DNA from: a virus
IMG/VR virus record: IMGVR_UViG_3300033512_000218
Span: 32,001-96,000 of that record
Strand: one strand, 5' to 3'
DNA length: 64,000 nucleotides
Shown here piece after piece: positions 2,699-46,166 of this stretch. The translations under genes were made by a program, and so were the position numbers. A model generated the notes under the pieces. The model saw nothing but the letters and a program-made list of their open reading frames with translations. It had not been told where the DNA came from and did no database searches. Numbering within the stretch: position 1 is the stretch's first letter; each line of letters opens with the position of its first letter.

Positions 2699-5600
2699 AT
2701 GAGTGAATTTTTAAGACCAGATGAAATATTAAATAATGTTTATCAAAATGGAGGAATTAATACATTTCTTCGTCCAGATGAAATATTAAATCTTGTATAT
2801 TCAGAATCAGAAAATGCTTTAGCTGTTAATATAATCGGTGGAGGTGGAACATCTAATTTATCTGTATTTGATACAGTTAGTTCCGCAGAAAGTACCCAAA
2901 CAAATTCATTAATATATGTTAAAGAAACTGATACATTTTATAAATATGAACTAAATGGTTCATCTTATATAGTAAATGATACATCAATTTTAAATACATT
3001 AAATGCTGGAAATACACGTTACATAGGTGTTTCAGGTAAATATACAGAAATATTATCAATTGAACAATTATCAACTAAAGAATTAACAGGTATTCCCACT
3101 CAGGAATTATCTAAATTTACAATAAATTATAATCCTACAAATAGAGTATTAACTTTAACTCGTATATCAGATTATACATTCTTTGTTCAAGGAAAACAAT
3201 TTACAAAAAATTCAACTATTATTATGCCTGCTCATAATAATACAACAGGATTGTATTATTATTATTTTGATACTGACGGAGTACTAAAAATGTCGTTATC
3301 AATGCCAGATGTATTTAATTCAGTTGCTTTTGTAACATATATTTATTATAATGCAGATTTAATTGATGGTTTTGCTGGTGATGAAAGACATGGAGTTATA
3401 ATGGATGGAGATACTCATAAACTATTACATTATACATTTGGAACTCAATATAAAACAGGATTAAATATAGATGGCTATACATTACAATCTGATTCTATTT
3501 TAGATACAGTGTATAATATAGAAGAAGGAACTATTTACGATGAAGATATTCAATTAACAATACCAGAATTAACAACTGATTATACTATATTTTATAAAAA
3601 CGGTATATTAGGAGATTGGTATTGGAATGATGCTCTATCTTTACCGTATTCAATTTCTAATGATAATATTCAATATAATGAATATACAGGAGTAACATGG
3701 CAATTAACAGAATTAAATGAAAATAAATTTTTTAATTCATATGTATGTGCAACTGATATTATTGACACAAGATTTAAAATTGTTATTGTTATAGGACAAT
3801 ATTTATATAATACACAAACCGAAGCAGAATCTCGTAGTTTTGCTGATTTGGATTTAACTAAATTCCCATTCACTGAAACACTTCCTATTTATCAAATAGT
3901 ACATAAATACGATACAACTTATTCAACAACAACAGGTAAAAGTAGATTTGAAACAGTTATACAACTTTTTAATAATAGAAAAATAGTTAATAATAATTGG
4001 TCAATTGACAAAATTAAAAAATATGTTGATAATAAAAGAGACCCAAAAATAATAAATGTAGCTAAAAATGGAGGACAATTTACAATTATTAACGAAGCAT
4101 TAAATTCCATTACAGATAATTCAATGATAAATCCTTATGTAATAAAAGTTGGAACAGGAATTTATATTGAAGATTCTATTATAATGAAAGACTATGTTTC
4201 AATTATAGGTTCTGGAGAACAAATTACTATTATACAAGCATTAAATACTACTCAAACAATATTTACAGGAGCAACAAATTGTGAATTATCATCTATGAAT
4301 ATAACAGGTGCAACTGGTTCTGGTGGAATTTGTATAAAAGTAAATAATTTAGCTTCTACTAATCCATTTAGAATGAGTAATATTTATTTCGGCTCAAATG
4401 AAACTCAATTAAATGTAACATCTACAACTGGAATTACAATATGTACACTGAAAAATAGTTATATTGGAAGTTCTTCTATTTTTACAAATGGATTTAAAGT
4501 AGATTCTATAAATGCTTCACAACCATCATTATTAGTTGTAGAAAACTTTTCATACTTAGATATTATTGCTCCATTTTTAACAACTTCATTATTTAATGCT
4601 GATGGAATAGGTGCTCAATTAGTATTATCAAGTGTTCTAACAAGAAGTTCAGGAAATACAGGAACAGCCATGTTAATTGAAAATGGTGCTTCATTAAGAA
4701 TACTTTCTGGTACATTTAGAGGATTTGCAAATGGAATACATTGTCCTGCTACAGGTACAGGACAAACAATAATAGCAAATGCAATTAATTTAGAATGTTT
4801 TTCAAAAGATGTATTAATAGAAAATGCAAATACAATAGGAAATTTAACGGGTTATACATCATATAATAAAACAAGTATAAACGATAATTGTTCCTTCTTT
4901 ATAATAAATAAAGATTTAAAAGTTATATCTGTTGCTAAAAGAGGAGGTGACTTTACTTCAATTGCTTTGGCATTAAATGCAATAACTGATTCAACTGCAA
5001 CAAATAGATATAAAGTAGATATTGGTCCTGGAATATTTATCGAACCAGAATTAACAATTCCTTCATACGTATCTTTAGTAGGTAGTTCAATAAATACAAC
5101 TGTTATTGAACCTGATACAAATGACCACAATGTTATAAATATGAATGAAATGACAGAAATTTCATTTTTAACTATTGAAAATGCAGGTGTCGGTTATTCA
5201 GCTGTATCATCAATTAATAGTGGTAATTTTACTCAACTACATAAAATATCAATATATAATTCTGATTATGGAGTTTATTTTAAATCCACAACAATTGATT
5301 CTCAATTATATTTAGAATATGTTGATATAAATGGAATTTATTCTGAAGCTATAACTTGTATATCTGAAAATGGATTTGAATCATATATAAATACAGAAAA
5401 TACATACACATTTCCAGACAATTTAAACATTGCATCAAATCAAGTATTAGTGGATGGTACAAATGCTATAATGAGAGTAGGAAATGCTGGTGTTTCAAAT
5501 GTAATTGGTAATGGAGGTATTGGATTTTTAGTTACAAATGGAGCTTCTTTATTTTTAAAAGGTAGTAGTGTATCAAATTGTTCAAAAGGTATTTATTTAG

Positions 5601-19026: not shown

Positions 19027-19083
19027 TTTAACATTTATTAAGATAATTAAATTTGTATTTTTACTTTATTTATATTATCTTTA
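19027..19083 (+). promoter_or_regulatory. 57-bp early-type promoter upstream of cassette array 1
   Basis: motif copy with a variant -7 box (TATCTTTA). Confidence 0.65.
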
Positions 19084-19210
19084 TAATATAATTTAAAATG
19101 AATATTAACCAACAACTGATATTAGGACAGAAACAATGGCTTATATTTGTTGTAAGCAAATAATCACTAAATTGTATGTTATGTACTTTTATCATAATAC
19201 ATTAATCAAA

Positions 19211-19447: not shown

Positions 19448-19451
19448 TTGC

Positions 19452-19578
19452 TAACGGTTGCAAATAAACACAGTAAAAGATATGAAAGAACAAATTTTAG
19501 AAATAGCAGAAAAACTTAGATTAGAACTAATAACTGAATACGAAGCACAAAACCTTTTATTTGGTTTATTTAGTGTTA
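19452..19578. repeat. attC-like site A
   Basis: TAAC..CAAATAAACACAGTAAAAG / CTTTTATTTGGTTTATTTAG..GTTA. Confidence 0.65.
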
Positions 19579-19691
19579 TACAACGAAGTGAACAGTTGGT
19601 TGCTTTTGTAAAATGGTTAGAAGCTAATTCAGACCACTCAATTGATAGAGGTTGGATAGAAGAATATATTGAAGCAACCAATTGTGTATAA
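19482..19691 (+). CDS. cassette hypothetical protein starting inside site A
   Basis: MKEQILEI...LFSVIQRSEQLVAF; stop codon is the TAA of the next TAAC. Confidence 0.6.
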   Translation: MKEQILEIAEKLRLELITEYEAQNLLFGLFSVIQRSEQLVAFVKWLEANSDHSIDRGWIEEYIEATNCV

Positions 19692-19804
19692 CGGCTGAGT
19701 ATTGGCGTTGTTGCCATCATAAACGATTATTAATAACACTAAATTATAAAATTATGACAAAAGTTTCAGAAAACCACGAAGGCAATAACGCTAATACTTT
19801 GTTA
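19689..19804. repeat. attC-like site B
   Basis: arms AGTATTGGCGTTGTTGCC (19698) / GGCAATAACGCTAATACT (19781). Confidence 0.85.
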
Positions 19805-19978
19805 GCCACAGTTATTCCTCAATCAAAAGAAGAGTTGTTAGAATGTATTCAAAATTTGATGGGTGTATTTGACACACCAGTTTCAAGAAGAGCAATAAAG
19901 GGTGAATTTGCCGATGAAGTTCGTAAGATAGGTCGTCAAATTTTGGAAAGTAATGGTAAATCAATGTACGATATATAA
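19754..19978 (+). CDS. cassette hypothetical protein starting inside site B
   Basis: MTKVSENHEGNNANTLLATVIPQ; A-rich leader lies in the hairpin loop. Confidence 0.65.
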   Translation: MTKVSENHEGNNANTLLATVIPQSKEELLECIQNLMGVFDTPVSRRAIKGEFADEVRKIGRQILESNGKSMYDI

Positions 19979-19985
19979 TTGTGGC

Positions 19986-20071
19986 TAACGTATCGTGTAT
20001 GAGCAGTGGCACTTGTACACACTTTCAAATTAGCTACAACGATTATGTGCCATTGCTTATACACGGTGTTA
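19986..20071. repeat. attC-like site C
   Basis: arms CGTGTATGAGCAGTGGCAC / GTGCCATTGCTTATACACG. Confidence 0.85.
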
Positions 20072-20109
20072 GTGACAGTACTTTTTTTAATAATCTAATA
20101 ATCAATTAT

Positions 20110-20664
20110 ATGAAAGCTGAAAAACAAATAATTTACGATGACGAAAATGCAGCCAGATTCGTTGAAAATATCAAAGGTTGGGTTGATATTAATAATCAAT
20201 TTTATGGGAATAATTCAGATTCTGAACATATGGCACGTTGGTCAAGTTGCACACATAAAAAATGTAAATGCGGAAAGCTAATAACTAAAGGATGGACGAA
20301 ATGCGATGAATGTAGAACTAACTCCGAAATTGAAAGATATAACCAACTTACATTTAAAGAATATAATGGTGATATAGTTTATTCACATTATGCTGACCGA
20401 TACTTTATGGATTCTGATGAAATAGAAGATTATTGCTCTGAGGAAGAAATTGAGACTAAAGATTTGAGGCTTGTATTTTGCGAACCAAATAAATTTAGCC
20501 AAATATATAGTGACTATTGGGAAGATGTATTGCAAGAAGATTCAGAAGGCGAATTACCTACGAAGTTACAAGAGGCTTTAGATAATTTAAATAAAATCAT
20601 TTCTGAAATGCCTCCAGCGAGTTATTGCCCAAGTAAAACACGAACTGAATATCGTAGCGTGTAG
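20110..20664 (+). CDS. cassette phage protein with Cys cluster
   Basis: likely start MKAEKQIIYDD; CTHKKCKCG..CDEC. Confidence 0.7.
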   Translation: MKAEKQIIYDDENAARFVENIKGWVDINNQFYGNNSDSEHMARWSSCTHKKCKCGKLITKGWTKCDECRTNSEIERYNQLTFKEYNGDIVYSHYADRYFMDSDEIEDYCSEEEIETKDLRLVFCEPNKFSQIYSDYWEDVLQEDSEGELPTKLQEALDNLNKIISEMPPASYCPSKTRTEYRSV

Positions 20665-20673
20665 TATTGGCAC

Positions 20674-20762
20674 TAACGGTTGGGTGTATGAAACGTAACC
20701 TAACTACAAACTTTAGTATTAACCACTGAACTATAATAGGTTATGTTTTATACACCTTGTTA
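20674..20762. repeat. attC-like site D
   Basis: arms GGTGTATGAAACGTAACCTA / TAGGTTATGTTTTATACACC. Confidence 0.85.
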
Positions 20763-20862
20763 TATGCAGTGCGGACTTATAGTGGAAATGTTGATACGAG
20801 AGATGAACCTTTTTGTTTTATTTTTTGTGCGGTGGGAAAGTAATTAACTTAATAACTAAAAT

Positions 20863-21435
20863 ATGAAATACGAAATAATATACGCTGATCCAGCTTGGGA
20901 ATACAATACAAAGGAATGTTTGGCTAAAACATCAATACTTAATGGAGAATTGAATACCCATTATAGCACAATGACATTGAAAGACTTAAAAGCATTAGAC
21001 GTGCAAAGTATTTCAAATAAAAATTGTATGCTGTTTTTGTGGGTTGTAAGCCCGATGTTAAAAGAAGGTATTGAAGTGATGGAAGCGTGGGGCTTTAAAT
21101 ATGCCACAATAGCTTTTATATGGCACAAGCAAAGAACAAACCCTGGACATTATACAATGAGTGAATGTGAAATTTGCTTGGTAGGGAAGCGTGGCACAAT
21201 ACCAACTCCAAGAGGAGCAAGGAATGTAAGGCAATTTTTATCTGAAATGCGAGGCAAACATTCTGCTAAACCTAATGAAATAAGAACGAGAATTGATACA
21301 ATGTTTCCAACTCAAAATAAAGTAGAATTATTTGCAAGGCAGAATGTTTTAGGATGGGATGCTTGGGGTAACGAATGCGAAAACTCTATAACTATTGGAG
21401 GGGAGGAAAAAAAAATTAAAACAAATTGCGTATAA
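20863..21435 (+). CDS. MT-A70 family N6-adenine methyltransferase (cassette)
   Basis: IYADPAW, LFLWV, WGFKY, HSAKP, ELFAR..GWDAWGNE. Confidence 0.9.
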   Translation: MKYEIIYADPAWEYNTKECLAKTSILNGELNTHYSTMTLKDLKALDVQSISNKNCMLFLWVVSPMLKEGIEVMEAWGFKYATIAFIWHKQRTNPGHYTMSECEICLVGKRGTIPTPRGARNVRQFLSEMRGKHSAKPNEIRTRIDTMFPTQNKVELFARQNVLGWDAWGNECENSITIGGEEKKIKTNCV

Positions 21436-21497
21436 CGAATGGTGCTATGAGCAGGTTTGTGTTGCGCCTGCGGCAAACTTGCTTATAGCACGTGTTA
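21433..21497. repeat. attC-like site E
   Basis: arms GTGCTATGAGCAGGTTTG / CAAACTTGCTTATAGCAC. Confidence 0.85.
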
Positions 21498-21568
21498 CTG
21501 GCTGGCTCGGTTAATTAACCACTAAACTCAAATCGAAGCATTAAACAAAAGAATTTAAAAAAAGAGGG

Positions 21569-22330: not shown

Positions 22331-22358
22331 ATCGCAGCACAAATGTAGAGCTTGCCAG

Positions 22359-22447
22359 TAACGTTGGTGCTATGAGCAGGTTTGCCTTGCAGAAATGTTC
22401 AAATTTAGCACTAATGTTATTGGCAAACTTGCTTATAGCACGTGTTA
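22359..22447. repeat. attC-like site F
   Basis: arms identical to site E, different loop. Confidence 0.85.
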
Positions 22448-22483
22448 TGTGCCGTTTTTATTCACGAATTTAAAATTAGTAAG

Positions 22484-22996: not shown

Positions 22997-23005
22997 AATG
23001 GCACA

Positions 23006-23093
23006 TAACGGTTGCGTGTATATTTCAGGTTTGCTTGTACGAACTTTGAATTATGCACAAATGCTGATGCAAACTTGAATATACACGTTGTTA
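23006..23093. repeat. attC-like site G
   Basis: arms CGTGTATATTTCAGGTTTGC / GCAAACTTGAATATACACG. Confidence 0.85.
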
Positions 23094-23167
23094 GTAACAG
23101 TAGCATACGACAATGTTAATTTGAAACGCTACACTTTTTATTTTAAATTTTTAAGGAGGGATTTTTT

Positions 23168-24148: not shown

Positions 24149-24199
24149 AATAAAAAATTATTATGCACGAACCTTGCTACGAAGAAAGGCTATTGTTAC

Positions 24200-24302
24200 T
24201 AACTATTATATATAAACAAGTGTATTTAATTTATTGATTATGAATACAAAAGACAAAACAAATCTTGAAATTTTCGAAGATATTTCTTGAGTTGAAAATT
24301 AT
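24200..24302. other. attI-like terminal site plus putative integrase 5' remnant
   Basis: TAACTATTATATATAAA..TTATTGATTATG then MNTKDKTNLEIFEDIS*VENY; ~100 bp shared with 42846-42950. Confidence 0.6.
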
Positions 24303-24306
24303 AAAT

Positions 24307-24363
24307 TTTAACATTTATTAACACAAATTAATTTTGATTTAGTTAATAAATGTTTTATCTTTG
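24307..24363 (+). promoter_or_regulatory. 57-bp early-type promoter
   Basis: motif copy. Confidence 0.8.
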
Positions 24364-24388
24364 TGATATAATTTAAAAAATTAAACAA

Positions 24389-24820
24389 ATGAAACATTTT
24401 ATTACATCATTAAGAGCAACCTCAAAAGAAGAAACATTAAATCGTTTTAAAGAAACAAATGATTATAATGAAAATAAAGTATATTCTGCTAATCTCAATT
24501 GGTATACACAGGATTGGGATATATACGAATATGATTTAAAAGAAGGTGATTATATTGCATTTGAATATGAATATGAAATAGGTGACCCTGAAATAATAGT
24601 TGATAATATTTCATTTGTATATGAAGATAGAGTAATCGTACACTTTTTATATGGTTATAAATCTGAAACTTGTACTATTTTAAAAAAAGATATTTTAGCA
24701 ATAGGAAATAAACTAAATGGAACAACAAAATTATTAGGTTGGACTGGCTTATTTGATATTGTAAATGAAACAGATTTTTTAATTAAAAATATAGAATATG
24801 AAACAAAATCTAATAGTTAA
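24389..24820 (+). CDS. hypothetical protein
   Basis: ORF after promoter. Confidence 0.65.
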   Translation: MKHFITSLRATSKEETLNRFKETNDYNENKVYSANLNWYTQDWDIYEYDLKEGDYIAFEYEYEIGDPEIIVDNISFVYEDRVIVHFLYGYKSETCTILKKDILAIGNKLNGTTKLLGWTGLFDIVNETDFLIKNIEYETKSNS

Positions 24821-25010
24821 AAAAGGACAAATAATTAAAACCGAGAGAAATGAAATTTTCAAAGTTAAATTGGAAAATGATAATATTATTACCTGTACAA
24901 TATCAGGTAAAATGAGATTAAATAAAATTCATTTAATTGAAGGTGATTTCGTAACGGTTGAATTATCTCCTTATGATATGACACGAGGTAGAATTAGTTG
25001 GAAAGGATAA
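24798..25010 (+). CDS. infA: translation initiation factor IF-1
   Basis: FKVKLEND..ISGKMRLNKIHLIEGDFVTVELSPYDMTRGRI. Confidence 0.93.
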   Translation: MKQNLIVKKGQIIKTERNEIFKVKLENDNIITCTISGKMRLNKIHLIEGDFVTVELSPYDMTRGRISWKG

Positions 25011-25399: not shown

Positions 25400-25882
25400 T
25401 AGCAGTTTGCAATATGAAACGGTTGCATTATAAAACGTTTCAATTTTAGTAATAGCTTGACAGCAACAGTTTTATATTGCTTGTTAGGTATAATAATTTT
25501 TATTATGGGAATGTACACACAATTTATTATCGAATGCAAGTTAAAAGAAGAAACTCCTTACAAAATTATCGAATGTTTAGAAGATATGATAAACGACATT
25601 GATAATGATTTATTTACTTATAATCGAAATCCTTTAAACAATTATTGTGAAAGCAATAAATATTTTAAATCATTTAAAGATTTAGTGTTAAAAGCACATG
25701 GGGATATAAAAAACTATCAGACTGATATTGATAGGTTTACTGATTTTATAAAACCTTATGTGGAAATAGGGTTTTTAGAAAATAATTCTTTTGCTAAATC
25801 ATTATACGAAGGATATGATGAGTGGACGTATTATTGTACCTAACTATTATATATAAAAATCTCAACCTAAGTTATTGACTAT
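25400..25882. mobile_element. integron-like array 2 (attC-like hairpin, one gene, attI-like end)
   Basis: arms GCAATATGAAACGGTTGC / GCAACAGTTTTATATTGC; ends GTTAGGTATAATAA / TTATTGTACCTAAC; then TATTATATATAAA..TTATTGACTAT. Confidence 0.75.
25505..25843 (+). CDS. cassette hypothetical protein
   Basis: likely start MGMYTQF; stop codon is the TAA of TAAC. Confidence 0.7.
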   Translation: MGMYTQFIIECKLKEETPYKIIECLEDMINDIDNDLFTYNRNPLNNYCESNKYFKSFKDLVLKAHGDIKNYQTDIDRFTDFIKPYVEIGFLENNSFAKSLYEGYDEWTYYCT

Positions 25883-25897
25883 ATTTAAAATTATATT

Positions 25898-25954
25898 TTT
25901 AACATTTATTAACATAATTAAATTTGTATTTTTGATTTATTTAATCTATCTTTG
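25898..25954 (+). promoter_or_regulatory. 57-bp early-type promoter
   Basis: motif copy. Confidence 0.8.
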
Positions 25955-25978
25955 TAATATAATTTAAAAAATAATAAA

Positions 25979-28900
25979 ATGAAAGATTTATCAAATTTAT
26001 CAATTAGTCAATTGGAAAAATATAAGGATGATTATATTGCCTTATACGTTGGTGATTTTTATAAACCTTTGGATTATAAAAAAACAATTCAATATATTAA
26101 TCAATTATTGGATTATAAACAAATTAAATTAAAAAATAAAATTCAGAAAAAAATATATACTCAAAATGAAGTATTTGGATTATTATCAAAAATATTACAG
26201 GACTATGACACTGTACTACAAGATAATAATATTAATACATTATTGATACAGTTTGATAAAAGGGAATGGTTTAATAAACACAAAAAATAAAAAAATATGA
26301 AAATAATTTATTTAGGACAAGAAATTGATAATTCAGTTGAACAAGAAATTATCAGTGATGAGGAAATTGGATTTAATGTTTCTTATAACTTTAAAGAAGG
26401 AACAAGACCTTATAAAAGTGTAACAGTATATAATGTATCTGGATTTTATTATTTAGGAGAACAATTGGAAAATGGCTTTTCCTTACATAGTCAAATACAT
26501 GACAATGAAATTAATAGTAACATTAAAGATATTGATATAATCAAAATAGATATATCTGATAGAGTATATACTGAATTTAAAAGGTATGAATAAAGAAATA
26601 AAAATAGGTAATAATATTTATACGGATAATCTTAAATCATTAAATCCTACTTATGAAAATAGTGGGATTTATGAAAATGAAAGTTGTTTTAAAATAAGCA
26701 ATCTATTATTTGATTATGAAATTTATATATCTAAAAAACATAAAGAAGGTATTAGATTAAAAAATATGATTTATGATAAAAAAAATATAAATGATATTAT
26801 AAACTATTTAAATCTTATAATAATAAAATCAATAAAAATAAGTGATATTAAACGTGAAATTAATTATTTGGAAAATATTGCTTATCTTAAAGGTAAAGAA
26901 GATATGAAAACTGAATTTAGAAACTTATTAAATTTAAAATAAAATGGATACAAATTATATATTAAAACCTGTTTCAATAAGTGAACGATTAACTGAATAT
27001 TTAATCGAAATACCAGTAATTAGTTCTGGAATTAATAGAACTGCATATTTGGATAGGGATAAAAAATTTTATTTAGTAACAGGTGAAGAAATAGATGTTG
27101 AATATTGGTATGAACCAATAAAATTATCTGAATTAGATAGTTTTAAAATATTACCTACTGAAAAAAGGTTGAAACAAAGAGAGGAATTGGATTGGATGCA
27201 TCCTTCTGATATAGCATTACTATATCATAAAGCTCTTGAATACACTGAAAAACAAAACATTAAATTACAATTAGAAATTAAAAAATTAGAAGATTTATTA
27301 TCTGCTACAGTTATGTCTGATTTAGAAAGACATAATGATTTAATTGAAAAACATGGAGAAATTTCTTGGCAAATTGAAGAACTTGCCAATAATAGAGATA
27401 GCGAAGATGGAATGTCAAATTCATTATTCAGACAATTAGTTAGAGAATTATTGGAACAGGGAGCAAATAAAAGATATATTAATTCAATTGATTCTATTAA
27501 AGAATCATATTGTTATAAAACATATGATAAATTTTTAAATAATGCATTAAAAATAGCATCATATGGAAAACTTAAAAAATAATTAAAATTATGAAAATAC
27601 AATTAAACTAATTTTTAAACACTTAAAATACAAAATATGAAAAATAAATTATTACATATATTAGAAAAAATTAAATCATTTACAAAATATTATATAACAA
27701 ATAAAAATGGAGTTTCTGAAGTAAAATATCAAAACTTAAATCTTAAAGTTAGTATTAAAAATAGTAAAATTGATATTGCAGTTGAATCTAAAACAAAAGA
27801 ATTGATTATTTATTGTTGTTTAGACTTTATTATTGATACAGAAATTGAGTTTTTTATTGAAAATGATTCATTTATACTTCTTTTAACTCAATTAAATGAT
27901 GAAATACAATTTATTAGTATTGAAAATGGATTACTAAATATAAATAATATTTATAGTAATATAATTAACCCCGATTTATGTTATGCTTTCCCTAAAATAA
28001 CAAAATTACCTGAATTTATTCCGTTTGATTTATCATTTTTAAACGATAAATTACCAATAAAATACAATGATAAATCAGAAATAAAAATATCTGATAGTAA
28101 ATTACAATTAAATCAATGTAATAATTTTAAATTGTATATTGATAATTATTATACATATAATAATAGTATTATAGAAATTATAAATAATAATCCTATTATA
28201 AATTGTTATAAACAATCATCATTGTTATTATTTAAATTTGAGTTAGATAATATTCTATGTTTTTTTAGCTTAACACATATTTAATATAAAATTATGATAC
28301 AATTAACAAAAGATTTATTAATAACCGAATTTAATAAAATTACACTCGTTAAAACCCAAAAAACAATATTAAAAAAATGTATAAATAATTTCAATGATAC
28401 TGATTTAATTGTGGATAATAGTACCACTGACCTTCATGTTCTTATGGGACATATATCATCTGAAATTAAAATTAATTTATCTGATGCTAAATTAGTTTTT
28501 AATAATGTTTTAACTTTTATCAATAATTATAAAATATGAAAATAGTAGATTTTATTTCAAAAATGATACAGAAATATCCTAAATTGTTTAAAGATATTGA
28601 TTATGAAAAATCAAAATTTAAAGTATTAAATCAAGTATTTTTTAGTTCTACAGATGATTTTGTAATAGCAAAAATAAAAAATCCATCAGAAAGTGGTTAT
28701 ATTGTTGAACCTAAATATAAAAAAGATAAAAAAACAAGTAAATATAATAGAATTATAGATAAACCGTATGGAAAAGAAAAGTATAAACTGATACCTAAGG
28801 AATATTTTGATAATGATGTTTATTATGTTTATACCAATGAAATTCCTTTGAATACAGTTTATATAAAAAATAAACACAAACGTGATAAAGTTTATTTTCT

Positions 28901-40267: not shown

Positions 40268-41041
40268 ATGATAATAGATTTAAGATTTGGTGATACAATA
40301 GAACAAATGAAATTAATACCTAATAAAAGTATTGATTTTATTTGTTGTGATTTACCGTATGGTACAACTAAAAATCATTGGGATATTGTTATTCCATTTG
40401 ATAAATTATGGGAACAATATGAACGAATTATTAAAAATAATGGTGCTATTGCTTTATTTGGTCAAGGATTGTTTTTTATAGATTTAATAAACTCAAATAG
40501 AAAATTATTCAGATATGATTTAGTTTGGGATAAACAATTAACAAGTGGATTTTTAAATGCAAATCGTATGCCATTAAGAGTACATGAAAATATTGCTATT
40601 TTTTATAAGCAACCACCTATATATAATTCACAATATACAGAAGGTAAGCCACTACATTCAAAAGGAAAATCATATCTAAATAAAGAACATAAAAATGAAA
40701 ATTATGGTAAATTTAAAATGATTGAAGATATTAATGTTGGTAATACACAAAAACATTCTAAAAGTATTATATCTTTTCAAAAACCACATCCAAGTAAATC
40801 CTTACATCCCACACAAAAACCAGTTGAATTGATTGGATGGTTAATAATGTCATATTCAAATGAAAATGATACTGTATTGGATAATACATTTGGAAGTTGT
40901 ACAACAGGAATTGCATGTATAAATACAAATAGAAATTTTATTGGAATAGAAAATAATATTCATTATTTTAATATTTCATTAAAAAGAATAAATGAAAAAC
41001 AAAAAGAAAAAGAATTTATATTATTAAATTCAATGATTTAA
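40268..41041 (+). CDS. N6-A/N4-C DNA methyltransferase, beta class
   Basis: CDLPYG, HPTQKP, LDNTFGSCTTG. Confidence 0.9.
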   Translation: MIIDLRFGDTIEQMKLIPNKSIDFICCDLPYGTTKNHWDIVIPFDKLWEQYERIIKNNGAIALFGQGLFFIDLINSNRKLFRYDLVWDKQLTSGFLNANRMPLRVHENIAIFYKQPPIYNSQYTEGKPLHSKGKSYLNKEHKNENYGKFKMIEDINVGNTQKHSKSIISFQKPHPSKSLHPTQKPVELIGWLIMSYSNENDTVLDNTFGSCTTGIACINTNRNFIGIENNIHYFNISLKRINEKQKEKEFILLNSMI

Positions 41042-41093
41042 CATTTATTAACACAATAATATTTGTATTTTAAAAATAAATGTTTTATCTTTG
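41037..41093 (+). promoter_or_regulatory. 57-bp early-type promoter
   Basis: motif copy. Confidence 0.8.
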
Positions 41094-41300
41094 TTGTATA
41101 ATTTAAAAACTTAAACAAAATGAAAAAACTTACAATTTGGTTAATGAAATACAACCTAAAAAAGGCAATTAAACAACAAGAATTACATGATAATTCTATT
41201 ATAAAATCAGCATACAATAATCTTATTAAAAACTATAGAGACACAATAATGTATATGGAAGCAGAAATAAAATCTAAAAATACACAAAAACAATAAAACA

Positions 41301-41660: not shown

Positions 41661-41676
41661 GAATAATAGAAAAATA

Positions 41677-41733
41677 TTTAACATTTATTAACACAAATTA
41701 ATTTGTATTTATGAAATAAATGTTTTATCTTTG
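41677..41733 (+). promoter_or_regulatory. 57-bp early-type promoter upstream of array 3
   Basis: motif copy. Confidence 0.8.
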
Positions 41734-41871
41734 TGATATTATTAACAATTAAAAAAATAAACAAAATAGAAAATCCACAAATTATTGAATCAAATGGTAA
41801 ATTTAATACAATTAAAAAACTTCATAAATTTGAAACATAAAATTTAATTAACAGATAAAACTTAATAAAAG

Positions 41872-42162
41872 ATGAAAACTTTGAGTACAAAAGAAACTGC
41901 CCAATTGGGTATAGGTGGTGTTATGCACCGTGAATTTCAAGAAAAGTTATTTAATGATATAAAAGCTATGCAATACAGAATACAAGGGCTTGCTGCTTAT
42001 GTACAGAATGACTTTGAAAGAATGTTGGAAGATGGTACAACAACAAAAGAAACTATTAATACTGAAATTACAGAAATGGATGAACAGTATAATAAGTTTA
42101 TTAACGACCTTAATATATTGAGAAAGCAAACCCGTGATTTAATGACTTTTCATGTTGCATAA
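41872..42162 (+). CDS. cassette coiled-coil protein
   Basis: reads through the GTTA core at 41920; stop codon is the TAA of TAAC. Confidence 0.7.
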   Translation: MKTLSTKETAQLGIGGVMHREFQEKLFNDIKAMQYRIQGLAAYVQNDFERMLEDGTTTKETINTEITEMDEQYNKFINDLNILRKQTRDLMTFHVA

Positions 42163-42950
42163 CGAAAAACGGTATGTGCCGTGATGTTTTTCGTATCTAA
42201 ACGGCTCAAAAGTATCAATAACCACAAATGTAAATAAGTAAGTAGACTGTATCAAAATAGCACTAAAAACAGCATGGACACTATACCGTATGTTATGCGT
42301 ATTAATCATATTATCAATAATTTAATTTTATAAAAATGGAAAATATCACAAATTTTGAAACATTAAACAGTTTTTTAGAAAAATTAGAAACTGAAAAAGA
42401 GGAATTAAATAGAAAAATAGAAATTTTGGAAGAAGAAAAAGATCATCAAAAATGGCAATGGATGAAACACATTGCAGTGCCAAAAGATGATTTTCTTAAA
42501 CAATTGCCTTGTCCACGAATAGAAATGAAAATATTTGGTGATAGATATGAATGTGGATGGATTACAGGAATTGTTTTTCCTGATTATGCAGACGAGGAAA
42601 AAAACAGATTTATTCCTTTTTCAATGACTACTACAAGTGGAAAAGATTTAATCGAAAATAAAAATCCGCGTTTGCCCTGGCGTGATGAGTTTCATATTTA
42701 TTCTTATTCACGAATATTTAATTTACGAATGTTTTTAACACGAGAAAATGATAATTTAATTACAGAATTATTTGTAAAACCTGAATTTATAAATCCTTTA
42801 TCAGATTTTGAAAGTAAAAATGTTATCGTTTAAATTTATTACGCATAACTATTATATATAAACACACATTTAATTTATTGATTATGAATACAAAAGGTAA
42901 ATCAACTCTTGAAATTTTTGAAAATAATTTAAGAGTTAAAAAAATTATAA
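41896..42950. mobile_element. integron-like array 3 (2 cassettes, attI-like end, integrase remnant)
   Basis: GTTATGCACCGTGAA / TTCATGTTGCATAAC; hairpin 42160-42295; GTTATGCGTATTAAT / TTTATTACGCATAAC; terminal site at 42846. Confidence 0.75.
42336..42833 (+). CDS. cassette hypothetical protein
   Basis: ORF between hairpin and terminal site. Confidence 0.7.
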   Translation: MENITNFETLNSFLEKLETEKEELNRKIEILEEEKDHQKWQWMKHIAVPKDDFLKQLPCPRIEMKIFGDRYECGWITGIVFPDYADEEKNRFIPFSMTTTSGKDLIENKNPRLPWRDEFHIYSYSRIFNLRMFLTRENDNLITELFVKPEFINPLSDFESKNVIV

Positions 42951-45872: not shown

Positions 45873-46091
45873 ATGAATTGGAAATTAAACACAGAATATG
45901 AAAATCCATTATGGAGAAATTATATGGATAATGTAAATGATAATAGATGGTTAAAAAAAGTTGATTTGAAATTACCTTTTATTGTTGAAAGTTTTGCTAC
46001 TTATGATGAAGATGAGTTTTTAGAAAAATTAAAAACAGATGAAGAATTTAACAAGATTTGGGGAACTCCATTTAAATCTGATAATGATTGA
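45873..46091 (+). CDS. hypothetical protein
   Basis: ORF with A-rich leader. Confidence 0.55.
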   Translation: MNWKLNTEYENPLWRNYMDNVNDNRWLKKVDLKLPFIVESFATYDEDEFLEKLKTDEEFNKIWGTPFKSDND

Positions 46092-46109
46092 TTAATTTAA
46101 TCAAAAATA

Positions 46110-46166
46110 TTTAACATTTATTAACATAAATTAATTTTGATTTAGTTAATAAATGTTTTATCTTTG
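46110..46166 (+). promoter_or_regulatory. 57-bp early-type promoter
   Basis: motif copy. Confidence 0.8.

Follow-up and report, generated by a model that had tools for sequence, protein, structure and literature searches.

Candidate start codons within the hairpin sites of an integron-like cassette system in Bacteroidota-type phages

The window analysed here is a stretch of 64,000 nt (positions 32,001-96,000 of the IMG/VR virus record IMGVR_UViG_3300033512_000218), taken from a source record of 139,610 bp that is ~60% complete according to CheckV. It contains imperfect hairpins bordered by TAAC and GTTA cores, and some of its open reading frames begin inside such a hairpin or end on the core of the next one. 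The locus thus raises the question whether a recombination site can double as the translation-initiation region and N-terminal coding sequence of the gene behind it and, further, whether each hairpin travels with its downstream gene or crossover at the other core exchanges N-termini. We consider it probable that the hairpins serve as recombination sites for an integron-like cassette system of Bacteroidota-type phages, in which the unit consists of a hairpin plus its downstream gene, and translation is inferred to start in the hairpin loop.

Hairpin sites and reading frames in the window

The sites were found by reading 19.2-26.4 kb and 41.0-42.5 kb, together with a gapped, GC-weighted arm-alignment scan (Table 1). 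Gapped and GC-weighted alignment of the arms was required, as an ungapped arm comparison of the window recovered no sites and a repeat search across this AT-rich DNA returned chiefly AT-rich noise; the GC content is 23% overall and 33% in a block at 19.4-24.2 kb. From 5' to 3', a site comprises a ..YTAAC core, 4-6 unpaired nt, an arm of 18-23 nt, a variable loop, the second arm, 2-3 nt and a GTTRRRY core. The four variable nucleotides of each GTTRRRY complement the next RYYYAAC and not the one in the same site. In the window this chain rule holds across six successive sites, with exact or 6/7 matches, and such complementarity to the neighbouring site is, judged from the sequence alone, a footprint of circular cassettes.

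Table 1. Hairpin sites, array end and reading frames of the window (positions counted from its first letter)
Feature	Position	Strand	Description
Site A	19449-19581	+	AT-rich long-loop hairpin ("module A"), from sequence; cores TAAC 19452-19455 and GTTATAC 19575-19581
ORF-A	19482-19691	+	69 aa; leader aa 1-31, Val32 = GTT at 19575, 37-aa C-module; stop TAA 19689-19691, inside GTATAAC of site B
Site B	19686-19807	+	GTATAAC (19686-19692), 23-nt arm, loop with A-rich leader and ATG 19754, second arm, GTTAGCC (19801-19807)
ORF-B	19754-19978	+	74 aa; residues 1-16 from loop and 3' arm of site B; end 4 nt before GGCTAAC of site C
Site C	19983-20074	+	Short-class hairpin, GGCTAAC ... GTTAGTG; gene behind starts outside, ATG 20110
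Site D	20671-20765		Clear hairpin site (sequence reading and arm-alignment scan)
MT-A70 methyltransferase cassette ORF	20863-21435	+	Stop = TAA of GTATAAC, site E
Site E	21430-21500		Clear hairpin site; GTATAAC at 21430-21436
Site F	22356-22450		Clear hairpin site (sequence reading and arm-alignment scan)
Site G	23003-23096		Clear hairpin site; single extra T, seen in this site only
Right end of main array	24168-24190	+	TACTAAC, then non-hairpin AT-rich sequence; candidate attI
Site H	25414-25489	+	AT-rich hairpin, degenerate 5' core GAAAC, GTTAGGT; fold z = -3.8
Cassette ORF	25505-25843	+	Stop = TAA of ACCTAAC (25838-25844); shared non-hairpin terminal sequence after
96-aa ORF	41872-42162	+	GTTATGC 41920-41926 read through; stop TAA 42160-42162 in GCATAAC
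Long hairpin site	42157-42298	+	GCATAAC ... GTTATGC; heads next cassette, ORF 42336-42833

The individual sites differ in their state of preservation. Site A has a stem of 8+8 AT pairs, and its fold in the window is no better than those of shuffled sequences (z = +0.8). Homologues of this hairpin follow TAAC in eight related contigs (L013, L014 and L019-L024), each with an identical ATG and leader, and site A is accordingly taken to be a diverged and AT-rich member of this genuine family of long-loop hairpins. Site B folds more stably as the top DNA strand than as the bottom one (-18.6 vs -14.1 kcal/mol; z = -3.6) and reaches -33.1 kcal/mol as RNA, while site H is the head of a single-cassette locus. 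The non-hairpin sequence that terminates the main array is repeated at 25841 (25838-25860), with a recombinase gene beside neither copy; its counterpart in relatives lies just upstream of the recombinase gene.

A search of the whole 139.6-kb record with the IntI model TIGR02249 and with the recombinase of the relatives detected no tyrosine recombinase. A decayed integrase N-terminus at 24240 had also been considered and is unsupported by both searches, though a 16-residue remnant would lie below their reach. With at least seven attC-type sites in the window and no tyrosine recombinase in the record, the definition of a CALIN, an integrase-less attC cluster, is met. The system in the window is a decaying, recombinase-less one, its leftmost sites being in decay, and with no recombinase in the record the window alone gives no sign of current mobility. 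Among its cargo are four phage-type orphan DNA methyltransferases, which points to counter-defence. A promoter-like repeated element is found elsewhere in the window, separate from the hairpins.

The sequence-only reading had proposed that three frames, opening at ATG 19482, 19754 and 41872, read through a GTTA core and that four cassette ORFs stop on the TAA of a TAAC (19691, 21435, 25843 and 42162); when checked on the sequence, every one of these coordinates proved correct. The ATG of ORF-A lies between the two cores of site A, so that the loop and 3' arm of this site form the codons for residues 1-31. AlphaFold predicts helices at residues 2-15 and 19-49, the latter spanning the junction, at moderate confidence with a mean pLDDT of 73. 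A homology of ORF-A to the N-terminal half of a 122-aa protein of contig L001 was rejected (E = 0.77). In ORF-B, the start follows an A/T-rich leader in the loop, the 3' arm is read as GNNANTLLA, GTTAGCC is read through, and the conserved core of three helices sets in at IPQSKEE (aa 21). The AlphaFold model has residues 1-16 disordered (pLDDT <50) and a three-helix core at residues 25-66 (~90), and on this prediction the leader looks like a passive tag. In the 96-aa ORF that starts at 41872, the 17 residues ahead of Val-Met are encoded by the remains of a hairpin, namely its loop and 3' arm, the 5' arm having been lost in the window (z = -0.7); relatives (L074-L076) retain the hairpin whole. 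An open frame through a hairpin alone proves nothing, since ORF 19981-20664 spans the whole of site C without a stop although its PHROG match begins only at ATG 20110.

Loop starts and core stops in related arrays

To place these frames in a wider context, we used 44 related viral contigs that encode the recombinase and tabulated 81 non-redundant units from them. Hairpin lengths are bimodal, with a short class of ~85 nt, behind which a conventional start follows 20-120 nt further downstream, and a long class of ~125 nt. The ORF starts at an ATG in the hairpin and reads through GTT in 32 of the 81 units (~40%), and 31 of these 32 have long hairpins. The modal distance from loop ATG to GTT is 63 nt, and the mean P(unpaired) around this ATG is 0.70. 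Adenine makes up 58% of the 20 nt ahead of it, as would be expected in Bacteroidota hosts, which initiate translation on unstructured A-rich leaders. Open frames that begin with ATG and reach GTT share the phase of the downstream ORF in 33 of 44 long hairpins vs 33 of 88 for the other phases (Fisher p = 8e-5); the short hairpins of the 44 contigs have no in-phase enrichment of ATG frames. The phase of GTT is likewise biased (25:0:7, p = 2e-7), being the codon GTT in 25 units and xxG-TTA in seven, with no instance of the third phase, which would often yield TAG or TAA.

The most likely account of these features is a model in which the loop of a long hairpin, with its A-rich, mostly unpaired leader and ATG, acts as the initiation region. 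Translation is inferred to start there and to proceed across the 3' arm and GTT, a core mostly read as valine, into the body of the cassette. With the hairpin formed on the transcript, the loop start would remain accessible and the elongating ribosome would open the 3' arm, the site thereby supplying the start codon and the first about 15-45 residues, or the first 17-32 in the phage of the window. The ORF would then continue to the next site, where the TAA of TAAC provides the stop in roughly one fifth of the units.

A competing reading, which we regard as very improbable, is that the upstream frames are fortuitous, the real starts lying at or after GTT (ATG 41923, TTG 19799 and ATG 19859) and the hairpin being a 5' untranslated structure. 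ATG 41923 is indeed in frame directly behind GTT, and a GTT-ATG is found in most copies of the C-module of ORF-A; the copy in the window, however, has ATA instead of ATG at this position and hence no start of its own. Of the two candidates in ORF-B, ATG 19859 falls within the conserved, confidently folded core, and TTG 19799 is not conserved (CCG in L005 and L006, CTG in L004), and both were rejected. That a frame may stay open without being used is plain from 19981-20664, and in-frame ATGs are present in the non-ORF phases of 37% of long hairpins too, but chance frames do not account for the phase enrichment, the fixed 63-nt spacing, the A-rich leader or the existence of a separate class of long hairpins. 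The predicted disorder of the 74-aa protein's leader also suits an untranslated hairpin; against it stands the codon-position periodicity of a recurrent leader ending in ..NISD|V. In the loop part of this leader, the entropies of the three codon positions are 0.68, 0.52 and 1.11, the third position being the most and the second the least variable. Against a coding role, codon differences of a single nucleotide in this leader are mostly non-synonymous (113 vs 37).

Conservation among homologous cassettes bears on the same point. We compared the 74-aa cassette (ORF-B) of the window with the DNA of nine further metagenome contexts encoding relatives of its protein. Every copy, including those only 69-74% identical, has the loop ATG and an open frame through the 3' arm, and both are likewise kept in copies with a different hairpin sequence. 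In two of the contexts (L005 and L006; P0006), the 3' arm has been converted to the perfect complement of the 5' arm with the gain of one codon (3 nt), and the frame stays open. The alignment of the 74-aa family offers no alternative conserved start upstream of the IPQSKEE core. The loop part of the leader is poorly conserved in this family, and the leader peptide, modelled as disordered, may be functionless. In the family of the 41872 protein, the N-terminal 17 residues before Val-Met are conserved in two subfamilies with different hairpin sequences. The earlier proposal that the site serves both as initiation region and as N-terminal coding sequence would have been refuted by upstream frames that are not conserved; the 74-aa copies and the 41872 family do conserve them, and the retained ATGs and frames support it. 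Translation from the loop ATG itself remains an inference, with no expression, ribosome-profiling or proteomic evidence.

The stops on the next core are real but are the less surprising half of the finding. The ORF ends in, or within 16 nt of, the next 7-mer in 60 of 77 units, and in 15 of the 77 the core TAA is itself the stop. A further pattern is formed by 19 ORFs that end 9 nt ahead of the 7-mer in the same phase, so that the core TAA becomes a second stop. In total, 36 of the 60 ends near a core are in phase with its TAA (p = 3e-5). Overlaps between ORF ends and cores are common in classical cassettes too; we found no citation for stops inside attC cores.

The mobile unit and the associated recombinase

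In classical integrons, a cassette consists of a promoterless gene followed by its attC, the folded bottom strand of which is recombined by IntI, whose special domain reads extrahelical bases. Applied to the phage arrays, this geometry would assign each hairpin to the gene upstream of it, place the crossover at G|TT and give the downstream gene a new N-terminus upon rearrangement. The chain rule by itself fits equally well with this arrangement and with its mirror image, a gene joined to its upstream hairpin and cut at AA|C. A pairwise count of hairpin similarities was uninformative, most downstream hairpins being uncalled, and we used clustering of the flanks instead.

In all 10 contexts the 74-aa cassette keeps its upstream hairpin, with arms, loop and ATG position, and nine of the 10 copies have the same one; its flanks switch at TAAC on both sides (nine kinds of preceding and eight kinds of downstream sequence). 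Contigs L005 and L007 share a left flank that is 99.8% identical, after whose TAAC L005 contains exactly 300 bp more, namely one hairpin plus a DUF551 gene with GGCTAAC at the end. The flanks of the module-A cassette of L013 and L014 likewise switch at TAAC on either side, and family P0032 (22 contigs on record) has one and the same hairpin in the four contexts fetched (L015-L018), with both flanks different. In two DUF551 cassettes, the flanking 7-mers co-vary across the gene, GTTAGCC occurring with GGCTAAC and GTTATAC with GTATAAC. A single exception is L006, whose only differences from L008 lie in the 3' arm and in the 6-7 nt that follow TAAC, a pattern not accounted for by a strict AA|C junction.

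The conserved upstream hairpin, the flank switches at TAAC and the L005/L007 indel together identify the mobile unit as a hairpin plus its downstream gene. Sequence comparison places its borders on the coding strand at the AAC of its own core and at that of the following core, which makes it a mirrored classical cassette, and only this AAC boundary is in use for recently moved cassettes. Of the two outcomes that the sequence-only reading had left open, travel of the hairpin with its downstream gene is therefore borne out by the 10 contexts and the L005/L007 comparison, and crossover at the other core is not sustained as the main route. The classical geometry, in which that crossover would be the rule, is accordingly rejected as the main route and retains very little credibility: recently moved cassettes (the 74-aa gene, P0032) keep the upstream hairpin and change the downstream one, the 300-bp indel comprises a hairpin and the gene behind it, all arrays end on the recombinase side in a RYYYAAC without hairpin, and the better-folding strand is the coding strand.

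What the classical geometry would explain well are the sharp mosaic junctions at GTT. Shared C-termini whose N-termini switch at the GTT codon had been suggested as a search, and this search was positive: N- and C-modules re-assort exactly there. In the alignment of ORF-A relatives (A5), Val32, encoded by GTT, is the sole invariant column. At least 10 unrelated C-terminal parts, many of which are small zinc-ribbon-like peptides, follow the 31-residue leader of module A, and at least 14 follow the ..NISD|V leader. Conversely, the 37-residue C-module of ORF-A (19575-19691) is joined to at least five unrelated N-terminal parts, its DNA being 81-97% identical behind five mutually unrelated hairpins, each with a loop ATG 84-147 nt before GTT. 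Where two units have the end of the hairpin in common but different genes, similarity is lost 4-7 nt past the G of GTT (42 pairs); where they have the start of the hairpin in common but different DNA ahead of it, similarity sets in 1-3 nt before AAC (58 pairs). Both cores, AAC and GTT, thus appear from these alignments as sharp mosaic boundaries.

Under the hairpin-plus-downstream-gene reading, the GTT joints possibly stem from rare recombination of the complementary strand, from an unknown cassette-making process or from homogenisation of hairpin families, as is seen in sedentary integrons. The same site-encoded leader occurs on many unrelated proteins because hairpin families are common to unrelated cassettes. 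A bolder version, which we put forward tentatively as possible but not favoured, is that the system shuffles protein modules, the recombinase occasionally swapping at the in-frame GTT via the other strand and so rejoining N-modules (including folded helices such as module A) to unrelated C-modules. If true, exchange at GTT would be a prokaryotic-virus counterpart of exon shuffling by site-specific recombination within coding sequence.

Folding of the hairpins is strongly asymmetric. Among 151 distinct hairpins of the relatives, the coding (top) strand is the more stable in 144, by a mean of 3.1 kcal/mol, and the G.T pairs show a polarity: in 431 of them the 5' arm contributes the G, in 58 the T. 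The continuous stems contain two conserved G.T positions and no extrahelical bases for strand choice. As RNA, the hairpins average -32.8 kcal/mol; with the best fold on the coding strand, the hairpin is present in the mRNA too. No T-run follows the stems. The polarity of the hairpin relative to recombinase and docking site is that of a classical integron read on the other strand, with inverted gene orientation. The two ends of each gene together form a stem that goes past the 7-mers (R stem ~12-15 bp), and an invariant T stands four nt ahead of the 7-mer; as this stem extends beyond the 7-mers, the first and last codons of the cassette genes are structurally constrained.

The full system is preserved in relatives such as L018 and L013, where the array is followed by the RYYYAAC that ends its last unit, AT-rich non-hairpin sequence and a co-oriented tyrosine recombinase gene. 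Across the 44 contigs, 104 hairpin sites are found in 225 kb upstream of the recombinase vs four in 309 kb downstream (p = 6e-34), and 100 of the 104 have an exact 7-mer partner downstream. The non-hairpin RYYYAAC with its AT-rich sequence lies 50-150 nt ahead of the recombinase start, as expected of an attI-type array end. The recombinases comprise 265-308 aa and score 142-159 bits against TIGR02249 (cut-off 265), with the match split in two; their best matches are XerA models and archaeal XerA (PDB 4a8e), and VchIntIA (2a3v) aligns in two stretches only. This split, sub-cut-off match and the two-stretch alignment indicate a recombinase without the IntI-specific insertion. The absence of extrahelical bases from the stems accords with such an enzyme. 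That the recombinase acts on the hairpins rests on association, not on demonstration, and excision and insertion of cassettes are seen only through natural presence/absence variants.

The remaining alternative, that the hairpins function chiefly in RNA or transcription (as terminators or translational operators) and the mosaicism arises by homologous recombination as in PeSL cassettes without a site-specific recombinase, could appeal to the stability of the RNA hairpins, the G.T polarity favouring the transcript strand, the lack of a recombinase in the window, its repeated promoter-like element and the documented PeSL-mediated shuffling (PMC2839356), but we consider it very improbable given junctions that are exact at 3-4-nt cores, 7-mers that co-vary across the gene in the two DUF551 cassettes, the near-exclusive position of the arrays just upstream of a tyrosine recombinase (104 vs 4) and stems with no T-run behind them.

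Relation to known cassette systems

The phage arrays share much with classical integrons. Their sites are imperfect hairpins whose cores, RYYYAAC and GTTRRRY, complement each other across the gene in their variable bases, and one-gene promoterless units are arrayed next to a tyrosine recombinase and a non-hairpin docking site; as in sedentary integrons, hairpin families are common to unrelated genes. They differ in that the hairpin lies 5' of the gene, the unit borders are at AAC on the coding strand and this strand folds better, owing to polarised G.T pairs and not to extrahelical bases. The recombinase, in turn, is Xer-like, of 265-308 aa, falls under the IntI cut-off and lacks the IntI insertion. 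Further differences are genes that face the recombinase, an R stem of ~12-15 bp and start codons in loops.

Several published observations come close to parts of this arrangement. CALINs have been described in virulent phages, including a Polaribacter phage, with orphan methyltransferases as cargo (Qi et al. 2023, PMC9892861). There the sites are handled as classical attC (bottom strand, G|TT), and the section consulted mentions no phage-specific recombinase family, hairpin-first unit or in-site starts. ORF-11, ORF-17 and ORF-18 of attI1 and short ORFs in some attC sites provide an initiation region and cross the crossover point, and the stop of such a short ORF can come from the 7-bp core of the inserted cassette (PMC8876359). 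These attI1 ORFs encode helper peptides of 11-18 aa that act by translational coupling, whereas the phage ORF continues in frame into the cassette protein. In fused class 1 cassettes, such as ant(3'')-Ii/aac(6')-IId, the N-terminal part comes from outside the cassette body (PMC8876359); such fusions arise from rare accidental loss of attC, whereas in the phages an entire class of sites is regularly built this way. Finally, promoter/stem-loop (PeSL) cassettes shuffle small accessory genes of T4-type phages (PMC2839356, PMC4122927). They are promoter-terminator motifs thought to recombine by homology, without TAAC/GTTA cores, core complementarity, a recombinase or a coding role, and the phage hairpins, as read from sequence without a formal promoter scan, have no PeSL-type promoter-terminator composite.

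Our literature search on starts within attC, Xer-like phage integrons and inverted cassettes returned only the CALIN study (Qi 2023), the attI1 ORF-11 work, the fused cassettes and the PeSLs. In the literature covered by this incomplete search, a hairpin-first cassette, a coding-strand attC, a Xer-like recombinase downstream of the array and full-length proteins starting in the site are undescribed. On this reading, the phage family keeps the logic of the cassette and differs in the placement of the site before the gene, the coding-strand fold, the plain Xer-like enzyme and the start and N-terminal coding role of a whole class of sites. Small genes translated right behind a hairpin of ~-33 kcal/mol, in hosts without Shine-Dalgarno initiation, here have a testable answer as to how this is achieved. 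The origin of cassettes is an open question in integron biology, on which the natural in-frame joining of one leader to many unrelated proteins bears; the same joining is a possible design for modular expression.

Cassette borders and starts in such phages will be placed wrongly, and systematically so, by gene callers and integron finders. Among cultured phages, those of Polaribacter and Cellulophaga are the nearest relatives, their recombinases showing 36-38% identity. In the Polaribacter phage Freya_10, the annotated ORF Freya10_10 starts at 3844, inside a hairpin at 3791-3976, and forms the unit immediately upstream of the integrase gene, which starts at 4147 behind a TGCTAAC at 4094.

Pairing between the two ends of cassette genes

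In the 77 hairpin-plus-gene units that we analyzed from L025-L067, loci drawn from contigs with a co-oriented Xer-like tyrosine recombinase, the stem that joins the two ends of each gene reaches past the 7-mers. An ATT(G/A)Y motif with an invariant T at -4 precedes the 5' core, RYYYAAC, and pairs with the RYAGT that follows the 3' core, GTTRRRY. The stop codon in these units is often fixed 9 nt upstream of the 7-mer.

The C-module of ORF-A, the 111-bp segment that follows the leader module of this gene, carries its own 14-bp inverted repeat, with one G.T pair, at both of its ends. The entire gene body could therefore fold as a long panhandle. The same inverted repeat was also detected in the copy of the C-module in a related locus, L017.

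Coordinates of repeats, third-locus features and the flanking reading frame
Feature	Window position	Remark
C-module inverted repeat arms	19592-19605 and 19672-19685	adjoining the GTTATAC and GTATAAC cores
AT-rich repeat copy	19027-19100	
AT-rich repeat copy	24300-24390	
AT-rich repeat copy	25895-25980	
AT-rich repeat copy	41031-41120	
AT-rich repeat copy	41676-41760	
AT-rich repeat copy	46087-46160	
Leftmost unit, third locus	41790-41926	
Core upstream of the preceding gene	41920-41926	GTTATGC
Next hairpin, third locus	42157-42298	
3' core of that hairpin	42292-42298	GTTATGC
70-aa ORF	24798-25010	+ strand

Altered hairpins in relatives and at the third locus

Hairpin B, which heads the gene for a 74-aa protein, has differing counterparts in related loci. 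In phage contigs of 308 kb and 501 kb (L001 and L002 2809-3177), an ordinary operon contains a 122-aa ORF whose C-terminal half is the 74-aa protein. Homology in the DNA begins with the 3' arm of hairpin B, and the longer ORF encloses a weak residual hairpin (z about -3). This hairpin looks like the remnant of a site that decayed and became part of a fused gene. In two further loci (L005 3440-3560 and L006 1177-1297), the 3' arm of hairpin B has changed so that it complements the 5' arm exactly. Here, TTT is replaced by TCGACC with the gain of one codon, a change that looks like conversion within the hairpin, by which the N-terminal peptide was rewritten and the frame left intact.

At the third locus, the leftmost unit retains the hairpin loop, the ATG, the 3' arm and the GTTATGC core; it has lost the 5' arm and the TAAC core, both of which are still present in L074 and L075. 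Its cassette appears to be immobilized. The 3' core of the next hairpin has the same sequence as the core that lies upstream of the preceding gene, and thus one core pair is common to these two neighboring units.

Surroundings of the arrays and cultured phages

The Polaribacter phages Freya_1 to Freya_10, sibling isolates in culture, differ in length by up to 4.9 kb, and the distance between the record start and the integrase gene ranges from 68 to 4165 nt. The 4.1 kb that precede the integrase in Freya_10 (L080, MT732472; 1-4147) do not match anything in the final 6 kb of Freya_1 (L081). These differences may represent cassette-array variation in cultured phages.

Directly right of the main array lies a 70-aa ORF with clear homology to translation initiation factor IF-1; it scores 72.8 bits with PF01176, for which the cut-off is 30.2. 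This phage-encoded IF-1 may or may not be linked to the adjoining cassettes with their unusual initiation sites.

An AT-rich element of ~80 bp, distinct from the hairpin sites and containing an extended -10-like TGnTATAAT, is repeated in the window upstream of several genes, including one left of the main array and those right of each array. The element resembles an early promoter module of a phage.
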